A DNA stretch of 64,000 nucleotides from Escherichia coli (GTDB taxonomy: Bacteria > Pseudomonadota > Gammaproteobacteria > Enterobacterales > Enterobacteriaceae), in NCBI RefSeq assembly GCF_050920415.1, contig NZ_CP169309.1; one strand, given 5' to 3'. The first letter of the stretch is position 1. The number at the start of each line of letters is the position of its first letter. Below the pieces are notes generated by a model, which was not told the origin of the DNA, did no database searches, and worked only from the letters and a program-made list of their open reading frames with translations. Made by a program: the position numbers and the translations under genes. Of the stretch, positions 21,064 through 43,500 are shown piece by piece.

Positions 21064-21245
<182 letters not shown>

Positions 21246-23423: not shown

Positions 23424-24644
23424 ATGAAACGTGCAGTGATTACTGGCCTGGGCATTGTTTCCAGCATCGGTAATAACCAGCAGGAAGTCCTGGCATCTCT
23501 GCGTGAAGGACGTTCAGGGATCACTTTCTCTCAGGAGCTGAAGGATTCCGGCATGCGTAGCCACGTCTGGGGCAACGTAAAACTGGATACCACTGGCCTC
23601 ATTGACCGCAAAGTTGTGCGCTTTATGAGCGACGCATCCATTTATGCATTCCTTTCTATGGAGCAGGCAATTGCAGATGCTGGCCTCTCCCCGGAAGCTT
23701 ATCAGAATAACCCGCGCGTTGGCCTGATTGCAGGTTCTGGCGGCGGTTCCCCTCGTTTCCAGGTGTTCGGCGCTGACGCTATGCGTAGCCCGCGCGGCCT
23801 GAAAGCGGTTGGCCCGTATGTGGTCACCAAAGCGATGGCATCTGGCGTTTCTGCCTGCCTCGCCACGCCGTTTAAAATTCACGGCGTTAACTACTCCATC
23901 AGCTCCGCGTGTGCGACTTCCGCACACTGTATCGGTAACGCAGTAGAGCAGATCCAACTGGGCAAACAGGACATCGTGTTTGCTGGCGGCGGCGAAGAGC
24001 TGTGCTGGGAAATGGCTTGCGAATTCGACGCGATGGGCGCGCTGTCTACTAAATACAACGACACCCCAGAAAAAGCCTCCCGTACTTACGACGCTCACCG
24101 CGACGGTTTCGTTATCGCTGGCGGCGGCGGTATGGTGGTGGTTGAAGAGCTGGAACACGCGCTGGCGCGTGGGGCTCACATCTATGCTGAAATCGTTGGT
24201 TACGGCGCAACGTCTGATGGTGCAGACATGGTTGCTCCGTCTGGCGAAGGCGCAGTTCGCTGCATGCAGATGGCGATGCACGGTGTTGATACGCCAATCG
24301 ACTACCTGAACTCTCACGGTACTTCAACTCCGGTTGGCGACGTGAAAGAGCTGGCGGCTATCCGTGAAGTATTCGGTGATAAGAGCCCGGCGATTTCTGC
24401 AACCAAAGCAATGACCGGTCACTCTCTGGGCGCTGCGGGTGTGCAGGAAGCTATCTACTCTCTGCTGATGCTGGAACACGGCTTTATCGCACCGAGCATC
24501 AACATTGAAGAGCTGGACGAGCAGGCTGCGGGTCTGAACATTGTGACCGAAACGACCGATCGCGAACTGACTACCGTTATGTCTAACAGCTTCGGCTTCG
24601 GTGGCACCAACGCCACGCTGGTAATGCGTAAGCTGAAAGATTAA
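23424..24644 (+). CDS. fabB: 3-oxoacyl-ACP synthase I FabB
   Basis: 406-aa KAS I translation with active-site Cys (SSACATS) and His-His motifs. Confidence 0.96.
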
Positions 24645-24907: not shown

Positions 24908-27081
<2,174 letters not shown>

Positions 27082-34016: not shown

Positions 34017-34285
<269 letters not shown>

Positions 34286-41668: not shown

Positions 41669-42559
41669 ATGACAATATCGACAACTTCCACGCCGCATGA
41701 TGCGGTATTTAAATCTTTTTTACGCCATCCAGACACCGCGCGGGATTTTATTGATATTCATCTTCCCGCGCCGCTGCGCAAACTGTGTGATTTAACGACG
41801 CTCAAACTGGAACCAAACAGTTTTATTGATGAAGACCTGCGGCAATATTATTCCGACCTCTTGTGGTCTGTGAAAACGCAGGAGGGAGCGGGTTATATTT
41901 ATGTGGTGATAGAGCACCAAAGTAAGCCGGAGGAATTAATGGCTTTTCGCATGATGCGCTATTCCATCGCGGCGATGCAAAACCATCTGGATGCAGGCTA
42001 TAAAGAGCTTCCATTGGTGATCCCCATGCTATTTTATCATGGTTGCAGTAGCCCTTATCCTTATTCACTCTGCTGGCTTGATGAATTTGCCGAGCCTGCG
42101 ATAGCCCGCAAAATATATTCATCAGCATTTCCGCTGGTGGATATTACCGTGGTGCCGGATGACGAGATTATGCAACATCGCAAAATGGCGCTGTTGGAGT
42201 TAATTCAGAAACATATTCGTCAGCGCGATCTGTTGGGATTAGTCGACCAAATTGTTTCGCTGCTAGTTACAGGGAACACTAATGACAGACAGCTAAAAGC
42301 CCTGTTTAATTACGTATTACAAACGGGAGATGCCCAGCGTTTCCGTGCATTTATTGGTGAGATAACAGAACGCGCACCACAAGAAAAGGAGAAACTGATG
42401 ACCATTGCTGACAGATTACGTGAAGAAGGCGCAATGCAGGGCAAACACGAAGAAGCTCTGCGTATTGCTCAGGAGATGCTGGAAAAAGGATTTGACCACG
42501 AAGTCATCCTGACGCTGACCCGACTTTCACCAGACGACCTTATCGCGCAAAGCCACTAA
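41669..42559 (+). CDS. rpnB: Recombination-promoting nuclease RpnB (YfcI), PD-(D/E)XK family
   Basis: 296-aa translation matching YfcI/RpnB from memory. Confidence 0.88.
42398..42559 (+). CDS. Candidate nested small protein (53 aa) from an internal in-frame start within rpnB
   Basis: AAGGAG at 42386..42391 sits 6 nt upstream of in-frame ATG 42398 (codon 244 of rpnB); product [53 protein letters not shown] shares the rpnB stop. Confidence 0.45.
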
Positions 42560-42606
42560 TCCTGTAACACCGGGAATTAACTGGCGGATGTTTGCAGTAC
42601 ACCACA

Positions 42607-43500
42607 TCAGTGAACAACATCCGCCAGCGCCTCTTCTAAATCGTACCAGCGAAACGCAAAACCCGCTTCTTCCAGCCGTTTAGGCAATGCTCGTTGTCCA
42701 CCTAATACCAGTACTGAAGATTCGCCCATTAACAGTCGAATAGCGGTCGCGGGGACGCGCAAAATGGCCGGGCGATGCAGCGCATGACCGAGCGCATGGG
42801 CAAATTGTTCATTGCGTACCGGGTAGGGCGAAACCATATTAAACGGCCCGCGCAGCTCGTTATCCAGCAGCCAGAGAATACCGTTGACCATATCATCGAT
42901 ATGAATCCAGGCCAGATACTGCCGACCGGAGCCAATCGGCCCGCCCAGGCCAAGACGAAACGGCGGCAGCATTTTACCGAGGATCCCGCCGTCCGGTGCC
43001 AGCACCACGCCGGTACGCAGCAGGCACACACGTGTTTTGTCGCTTTGCGCCCGACAGGCAATCTCTTCCCAACGAGCGCAGAGTTTATGGGTAAATTCGT
43101 TATGCGGCGGTTCCTCTTCAGTAACCACCACTTCACCTAAGTCGCCATAATAGCCCGTTGCCGAACCGGAAATGAGTACCGACGGCGGCGTGTCGCTGGC
43201 ATTAATTAGATCGACCAGTTTTTGCGTGATATTCCAGCGGCTTTGGCAGAGACGATCTTTTTGCTCGTGAGTCCAGCGTTTATCGGCAATCGGTTCTCCA
43301 GCCAGGTTGATTACCGCATCAACGCCATTGAGGTTGCTTTGATCTGCAAGCCCTTGCCATAGTGTCACCCGGGGGCCGAGAACGGAACTGGCTTTCTGCG
43401 GGTTACGTGTCACTACCGTGATTTGATGGCCCAGCTCCAGCAAACGTGGAATCAAATGGCGACCAATTAATCCCGTCCCTCCGGTGATCACTATGTTCAT
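42607..43500 (-). CDS. yfcH: NAD-dependent epimerase/dehydratase family protein YfcH
   Basis: 297-aa translation with N-terminal Rossmann motif ([10 protein letters not shown]). Confidence 0.9.

Follow-up and report, generated by a model that had tools for sequence, protein, structure and literature searches.

The closest described systems to the locus analysed here are the RpnLS pairs, in which a gene for a toxic nuclease also encodes its own antitoxin from an in-frame internal start. For rpnB of Escherichia coli K-12, an internal ATG has been reported to give a signal in initiation ribosome profiling and to yield a small protein that was detected by tagging and acts as an antitoxin (Zhong et al. 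2023, PNAS 120:e2307382120, PMC10400941). Chromosomally SPA-tagged versions of both the short product (RpnB-S) and the full-length product (RpnB-L) were reported in the same study, and rpnB caused stronger growth inhibition when its internal ribosome-binding site and start codon were mutated. Loss of the small product upon mutation of the Shine-Dalgarno (SD) sequence and ATG was published both for rpnA and, with constructs carried on plasmids, for rpnB (PMC10400941). Induction of the SOS response by RpnB was blocked by RpnB-S and not by RpnA-S, and the block was lost once a stop codon had been placed at D29 of RpnB-S (PMC10400941).

The same work described the paralogous pair RpnA-LS, for which direct inhibition and complex formation by RpnA-S were demonstrated in vitro and for which a crystal structure of RpnA-S was obtained (PMC10400941). 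The two antitoxins do not cross-protect, i.e., RpnA-S fails on RpnB-L and RpnB-S fails on RpnA-L, and specificity was found to be determined by how many four-residue repeats helix 1 contains, which lie 8-20 residues beyond the methionine of the start codon (PMC10400941). A transcription start site was located inside every rpn gene by dRNA-seq, and the short transcript was more abundant than the full-length mRNA (PMC10400941). Protection against phage was shown for the plasmid-encoded RpnP2 only, and was directed against T-even phages (PMC10400941). Apart from the 2023 article and a commentary on it, a search for later literature on Rpn proteins brought up no further work.

The window examined here is a stretch of 64,000 nucleotides of E. 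coli DNA, in which rpnB (yfcI) occupies positions 41669..42559 of the plus strand. The full-length open reading frame (ORF) encodes RpnB-L, a toxic PD-(D/E)XK nuclease of 296 amino acids (34.1 kDa), and was identified from the RefSeq annotation of identical and near-identical loci and from the NCBIfam model TIGR01784 (Rpn family), which the window protein matched with 189.7 bits (cutoff 52.1) in a collinear alignment of residues 4-295 to model positions 4-291. Residues 8-209 (41690..42295, plus strand) comprise the Transposase_31/YhgA-like nuclease domain (Pfam PF04754, E 4.7e-91). The translation of this domain shows that the catalytic or essential RpnA residues D11, D63, E82 and Q84, together with R94 and P163-D-D-E-I167, are all intact; mutation of the same residues altered or abolished the activity of RpnA (Kingston et al. 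2017, PMC5350276). The Pfam name of PF04754 is ‘putative transposase’, and some records carry the label ‘ISNCY family transposase’.

The gene order, taken from the RefSeq annotation of E. coli loci that are 100% and 96% identical to that of the window, is hisP-rpnB-yfcH-folX, and only the long ORF is annotated at these loci. The region has a match in 5,425 of 5,426 complete E. coli genomes, and rpnB itself is absent from about 670-680 of the 5,426. In the one rpnB-less genome that was examined, ~30 nt stand in place of the segment from ~41579 to ~42583. A tblastn search of the 64-kb window revealed neither a second Rpn gene nor a stand-alone RpnS-like copy.

The internal initiation site was located by direct reading of the sequence and by script. 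The SD sequence AAGGAG (42386..42391, plus strand) is formed by the AAG codon of K240 and the GAG codon of E241, and is separated by a 6-nt spacer, AAACTG (42392-42397), from an ATG at 42398..42400 (plus strand). The distance between this ATG and the start of the long ORF (42398-41669) is divisible by three, which makes it codon 244 of 296; M244 of RpnB-L would therefore be M1 of RpnB-S. Translation of the nested ORF, rpnB-S (42398..42559, plus strand), gives a product of 53 amino acids with a mass of 6,045 Da (6.0 kDa) and a pI of 4.9, and its sequence is that of the C-terminal end of the long ORF. Both the SD sequence and the AUG are left unpaired in the RNA structure predicted for this region, which is no more stable than those of shuffled sequences (z +0.82). 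The sequence-only reading from which this analysis started had given the positions of the SD sequence, spacer and ATG, the codon number and the length of the product, and all of these are correct.

The internal ATG coincides with the published internal translation initiation site (iTIS). The correspondence can be established through the published stop-codon mutant: residue 29 counted from M244 is D272 in K-12, the D29 of RpnB-S in the paper is thus K-12 D272, and the published start is therefore ATG 42398. Both this internal start and the antitoxin made from it, RpnB-S, were accordingly already known, having been published in 2023 for the same gene and the same codon, and the present result is a rediscovery. 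The ribosome-binding site and start codon inside E. coli rpnB are real, and their conservation is strong. The reports to which the sequence-only reading had referred, of small proteins encoded within Rpn genes that counter the toxic full-length nuclease, correspond to those of Zhong et al. 2023 (PMC10400941), and its suggestion that rpnB is a two-product, toxin/antitoxin-like locus is supported, since the ATG is the same as the published iTIS and the SD-ATG region is identical to that of K-12.

RpnB-LS of K-12 resembles the window locus in its gene, chromosomal site, SD sequence, spacer, ATG and product length (53 amino acids); it differs from the window, which carries an O157:H7-type allele, by nine substitutions in a 12-residue patch and by four substitutions in the nuclease part. 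RpnA-LS, the product of a paralog that is ~45% identical to RpnB over the S domain, has the same architecture, and the mutations that abolish RpnA-S (K240R, E241D and M244L) affect the same residue numbers as the site in RpnB. The plasmid-borne RpnP2-LS and other plasmid Rpn genes encode homologous nucleases in which the internal methionine and SD sequence are conserved, as in RpnB. These plasmid genes are ~50-55% identical to RpnB, and their S proteins are longer (57-82 amino acids) and contain several tetrad repeats of the GxxQ/GIEK type.

Outside the family, RpnLS resembles the classical type II toxin-antitoxin operons in that the toxin is a protein and is bound and neutralised by a second, helical protein. 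Classical type II operons consist of two adjacent genes, whereas the RpnLS antitoxin is the toxin’s own C-terminal domain, produced from an internal start; toxin and antitoxin must therefore co-evolve. RpnS also appears to be released rather than degraded, unlike its classical type II counterparts. The gene-within-gene arrangement of Cas10d/Cas11d likewise yields a second product from an in-frame iTIS; there, however, the short product (Cas11d) acts together with the long one, while RpnS acts against it.

Conservation of the codon-244 start was assessed within Escherichia and among more distant homologs. Nine alleles, drawn from E. coli, E. albertii, E. whittamii and other Escherichia species, all share the sequence CAAGAAAAGGAGAAACTGATG without variation, while they differ in the third base of the nearby codon for Arg235. 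Of 5,426 E. coli genomes, 4,753 contain a 50-nt segment that includes the SD sequence and ATG, i.e., essentially all of those that carry rpnB, and the match was exact in 3,917. A scan of a genome collection with a single protein returned eight loci, nearly all of them from Escherichia; distant homologs were taken from a plasmid collection. The 12 diverged homologs obtained in this way are encoded on plasmids of E. coli, Klebsiella, Salmonella, Edwardsiella, Erwinia, Pantoea, Arsenophonus and Leptospira, and their identity ranges from 55% down to 27%.

All 15 homologs compared have a methionine in the aligned column; they include 12 of 12 diverged plasmid copies and a copy from an Erwinia genome, in which an SD core was also recognised by eye. 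A GGAG, GAGG or AGGA core lies 4-10 nt upstream of this methionine in 12 of the 12 diverged homologs, which are related and so do not constitute independent trials, compared with a background of 5.3% at all codon positions of the same genes. The residues that encode the SD core differ between homologs (EKE, HGD, HED, YED, HEG, YRE and HGE). As the core is spelled through different residues, conservation acts on the nucleotides and not on the protein sequence. Within rpnB, the AAG codon that contributes to the SD sequence is the minor lysine codon, accounting for 2 of 14 uses. Conservation of the SD sequence and ATG across Rpn homologs is a check that the sequence-only reading had proposed.

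The strength of the motif carries less weight. The pattern AAGGAG-N4-9-ATG occurs once in the 64-kb window, compared with a mean of 2.23 occurrences in dinucleotide shuffles, and at least one occurrence was found in 90 of 100 shuffles. About 0.23% of the plus-strand 9-mers of the window pair with the anti-SD sequence at least as well as the SD sequence of codon 244, and 16 of the 403 internal in-frame ATGs (4.0%) in the 61 long ORFs of the window are preceded, at a distance of 4-10 nt, by an SD core of 4 nt. The earlier claim that SD-ATG pairs of this quality are unusual inside coding sequence by chance is consequently not upheld for the bare motif, with one occurrence against 2.23 in shuffles and a base rate of 4.0%. 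The codon-244 site stands above chance because of its conservation and the published experiments, not because of the strength of its motif.

A second site within rpnB illustrates the same point. An SD core of at least 5 nt precedes four internal in-frame ATGs in the 61 long ORFs of the window, and two of these four are in rpnB, at codons 244 and 91. The codon-91 site consists of GGAGG (41929-41933), a 5-nt spacer and an in-frame ATG at 41939; its predicted pairing with the anti-SD sequence is stronger than that of codon 244 (-9.5 vs -8.7 kcal/mol), and M91 is conserved in 13 of 15 sequences. The SD sequence at codon 91 hangs on a synonymous GAG/GAA polymorphism (the window has GAG, whereas K-12 has GAA, as do five further Escherichia alleles), and it is absent in K-12 and in all of the diverged homologs compared. 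A third rpnB product starting at codon 91 was considered and rejected, the SD-ATG pair being attributed to chance: the SD sequence drifts synonymously and is missing from the diverged homologs, while the methionine is conserved.

The fold of the 53-residue product was investigated by profile search and structure prediction. A profile of 13 S-domain sequences matched chain A of PDB entry 7TH0 (recombination-promoting nuclease RpnA, 49 residues) over its full length (E 2.1e-13), and a single-sequence match placed residues 244-295 on residues 1-48 of the 7TH0 chain. The AlphaFold2 model of RpnB-S (pLDDT 77.8) contains helices at residues 3-29, 34-41 and 45-52. When this model was compared with solved structures using Foldseek, the sole confident match was 7TH0, ‘E. 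coli RpnA-S’ (probability 1.00, TM 0.68/0.78, 45% identity). RpnB-S is therefore predicted to form a compact bundle of three helices, the first of them long, as in RpnA-S. Matches to designer pentatricopeptide-repeat proteins in the PDB (E down to 5e-27) were also obtained and were rejected as an artefact, as they are made up of ten weak repeat matches to one helical hairpin, each of 6-10 bits with individual E values of 7-50.

A candidate sigma-70 promoter for a short rpnB-S transcript, ATGACA-17 nt-TTTAAT (42282..42310, plus strand), was sought and located with a position-weight scan. With approximate matrices, its score of 10.62 ranked first of 4,300 placements in the coding sequence and fell within the top 0.003% of the plus strand of the window; the best promoter-like site upstream of rpnB itself scored 6.3, against 10.6 for the internal candidate. 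Transcription is predicted to start near 42317-42319, ~80 nt before the internal ATG, the candidate promoter lying 87 nt upstream of that codon. The candidate is invariant in the nine Escherichia alleles, and the best -10-like element lies 81-87 nt before the internal ATG, matching its position in the window, in 6 of 12 homologs. The candidate -10 hexamer has T, not A, at position 2, and a strict sigma-70 consensus scan found no plus-strand promoter within rpnB. These observations are at most suggestive of an internal promoter, the exact position of which we infer to be 42282-42310, and the candidate fits the published dRNA-seq statement that there is a start site inside every rpn gene.

Comparison of the window allele with that of K-12 gave 96% protein identity over the whole of RpnB. 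The DNA is 100% identical at 42372-42476, and 90 nt around the SD sequence and ATG are the same in both alleles. Nucleotide differences amount to 3.3% over residues 1-243, with four amino acid differences (A74, I118, S127 and T233); to 1.2% over residues 244-271 (helix 1 of RpnB-S), with none; to 41.7% over residues 272-283 (15 of 36 nt), where 9 of 12 amino acids differ; and to 2.6% over the last 13 residues, again with none. The window and K-12 forms of RpnB-S thus differ at 9 of 53 residues, and all nine lie within one mosaic patch (residues 272-283, 42482..42517, plus strand; DRGLDRELVMMV in K-12), which takes in the last part of helix 1, the loop and helix 2. Of 5,426 genomes, 892 have the window type of the patch, O157:H7 and O145 among them, while 3,548 have the K-12 type.

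Helix 1 also varies in length. Alignments placed the length-variable point at A255-Q257 (residues 12-14 of RpnB-S; 42431..42439, plus strand), where other alleles carry four additional residues. Among the E. coli genomes, 1,227 carry the long allele, with four more amino acids at residue 12 of RpnB-S; the form in the window is the shortest, and plasmid homologs have from one to ~7 tetrads. No dodecamer tandem repeat was found in the window allele.

The helix-2 mosaic patch is the only element of the locus that goes beyond the literature consulted. It is conceivable, albeit improbable, that the patch at 42482-42517 is a second determinant of specificity or escape that is independent of the number of tetrad repeats; in that case, the window-type and K-12-type proteins would fail to cross-neutralise one another, or the patch would provide a surface for a phage trigger or inhibitor. 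On the basis of the work in K-12 and the conservation described above, the window allele would be expected to behave like the K-12 allele despite the 9 of 53 residues that differ.

These observations imply that rpnB, with high probability, belongs to the published RpnLS type of toxin-antitoxin locus, in which one gene lies within another and two products are made. Translation of the full-length mRNA would give RpnB-L, a PD-(D/E)XK DNA endonuclease that would damage DNA and so be toxic. Ribosomes would also initiate at AAGGAG-N6-ATG (42386-42400), probably for the most part on a shorter transcript from a promoter near 42282-42310. The resulting RpnB-S would be a 53-residue, three-helix protein equivalent to the C-terminal domain of RpnB-L, and would bind RpnB-L through the shared helical oligomerisation domain; the nuclease would thereby be blocked, with RpnB-S serving as a dominant-negative antitoxin. 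The sequence-only reading had also raised a possible role in defence against phage. This has been published for the plasmid gene rpnP2, and not for rpnB, for which an antiphage role is putative.

It could be argued that the SD-like motif lies beside an ordinary internal methionine by chance and that no second product is made. The number of motifs in the window, which is at or below the shuffle expectation, the minimal SD core found at 4% of internal ATGs and the stronger decoy at codon 91 are all compatible with such a coincidence. However, a chance pairing would not account for an SD sequence and methionine that are invariant across Escherichia and that 12 of 12 diverged homologs retain while using different codons and residues, nor for a small protein detected from the identical K-12 sequence, and this explanation is scarcely credible. 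Internal SD-like sequences have also been proposed to slow elongating ribosomes, and the site does fall at a domain boundary, after the end of Transposase_31 at residue 209. It might accordingly be a pause or co-translational folding signal at the point where the nuclease domain of RpnB-L meets its tail, rather than a signal for initiation. A pause signal would nonetheless leave unexplained the invariant methionine 5-8 nt downstream in all homologs, as well as the ribosome-profiling signal obtained with an initiation inhibitor and the tagged small protein, and merits equally little credence. The truncated inhibitor protein of Tn5 suggests another analogy, in which rpnB would be the transposase of a mobile element and its C-terminal product an inhibitor of transposition. 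The Pfam name, the ‘ISNCY family transposase’ labels and the presence/absence polymorphism all point in this direction. However, no terminal inverted repeats, flanking direct repeats or target-site duplication were found at the boundaries of rpnB presence and absence, as given by the one rpnB-less genome examined, the gene is single-copy and occupies the same conserved chromosomal site throughout the E. coli genome set, and the literature argues that Rpn proteins are not conventional transposases; a transposition inhibitor is thus very unlikely.

An alternative with a greater, if still minor, likelihood concerns the function of RpnB-S rather than its existence. RpnB-S could be made and have a main role other than antiphage abortive infection, either restraining a housekeeping or recombination-promoting nuclease or acting as a DNA-binding regulator of the helix-turn-helix type. 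Protection has been shown for RpnP2 only, and the authors of that work allow for housekeeping roles and note an HHpred similarity to helix-turn-helix motifs (PMC10400941). Overexpressed Rpn proteins promote RecA-independent recombination (PMC5350276). In addition, rpnB is flanked by housekeeping genes (those of the his transporter, yfcH and folX) and not by a defence island, and a PADLOC v2 scan of rpnB returned no matching model. Against this, the presence/absence of rpnB and the strong polymorphism of its S region (the 4-amino-acid indel and the mosaic patch) are both typical of defence genes, and direct binding and inhibition have been shown for RpnA-S (PMC10400941).

For rpnB, the result adds no new biology; it does show that a genuine gene-within-gene was found by a reading of the sequence alone. 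As the RefSeq annotation covers the long ORF only, the nested rpnB-S is left invisible to analyses based on annotation. The two sites within rpnB provide a calibration case, in which the conservation of the SD sequence at synonymous sites tells a real internal start from a chance one and the strength of the motif does not. Finally, the diversity associated with the S region, comprising the presence or absence of the gene, the 4-amino-acid indel and the mosaic patch, offers material for testing the specificity of toxin and antitoxin.

The antitoxin RpnB-S was found to carry a mosaic patch (window 42482-42517, + strand) that differs from the K-12 allele at 15 of 36 nucleotides and 9 of 12 residues, while the flanks of the patch are almost the same as in K-12. 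The patch occurs as two common E. coli haplotypes, present in 892 and 3,548 genomes. A search of E. coli genomes at the sensitivity of megablast detected no donor sequence for it at any other site.

The helical hairpin of RpnS, which the latter half of helix 1 forms together with the loop and helix 2, resembles, by sequence, the pentatricopeptide-repeat (PPR) consensus motif. The PPR-like stretch comprises RpnB residues 255-285 (window 42431-42523) and follows the pattern G-x-x-EEAL-x-x-x-x-EM-x-x-x-G-x-x-x-D-x-V. The E-values obtained for the hairpin in the PDB search are inflated, because ten weak repeat matches were summed, and the likeness is probably a convergent similarity between helical hairpins.

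A second in-frame SD-ATG pair was identified within rpnB, upstream of the RpnB-S start at codon 244. It lies at window 41929-41941 on the + strand and consists of GGAGG, a 5-nt spacer and an ATG at codon 91, directly 3' of the catalytic E82-H-Q84 motif. Initiation there would yield a predicted 206-aa product without the catalytic residues, and the pairing with the anti-SD sequence is stronger than that of the codon-244 site. The codon-91 SD depends on a synonymous GAG/GAA polymorphism, and was found neither in K-12 nor in diverged homologs; this SD-ATG pair is therefore probably the result of chance. Outside rpnB, only two internal in-frame ATGs in the window are preceded by an SD core of at least 5 nt. 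Both are on the + strand with the core AAGGA and a spacer of 6-7 nt: one at 23553 (codon 44 of 406 in the ORF 23424..24644) and one at 25658 (codon 250 of 392 in the ORF 24911..26089).

Several features of other rpn loci were also observed. The E. albertii allele (L003) has a four-residue PYPY duplication (SPYPYPYPYS, RpnB residues ~127-135) that is located in the nuclease domain and not in the S region. A convergent DUF2913-family gene is found repeatedly 3' of plasmid Rpn genes. Its overlap with the rpn stop codon is 4 nt on the Salmonella (L015) and Klebsiella (L019) plasmids; on the Pantoea plasmid (L018) the gene lies about 340 nt downstream of rpn. The copies on IncI-type plasmids (L012 and L017) instead have a 68-aa hypothetical ORF about 60 nt downstream. 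A 380-nt, low-coverage contig of Novosphingobium sp. BW1 (NZ_VIRF01000009.1, L009; coverage 0.9) contains the final part of E. coli rpnB in its K-12 form and runs into the beginning of the intergenic region towards yfcH; it most likely represents E. coli contamination of that assembly.

The window contains no tRNA genes; three matches to the Rfam family naRNA4 (RF02564) exceeded the gathering score, at 21116-21194, 34072-34142 and 34163-34233, all on the + strand.

The rpnB gene is missing between hisP and yfcH in about 670-680 of the 5,426 complete E. coli genomes. In L011, the only rpnB-less genome examined, the ~1-kb segment (window ~41579 to ~42583; L011 locus, 1573-1730) is replaced by about 30 unrelated nucleotides, and no direct or inverted repeats flanking the segment were found in this one genome. 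The right boundary of the polymorphism falls at the left arm of an inverted repeat just 3' of the rpnB stop codon, whose two 12-nt arms match perfectly and are separated by a 23-nt loop (42581-42592 / 42616-42627). The convergent yfcH ORF reaches into this repeat with its 3' end, and the repeat may form a terminator hairpin shared by the two genes.
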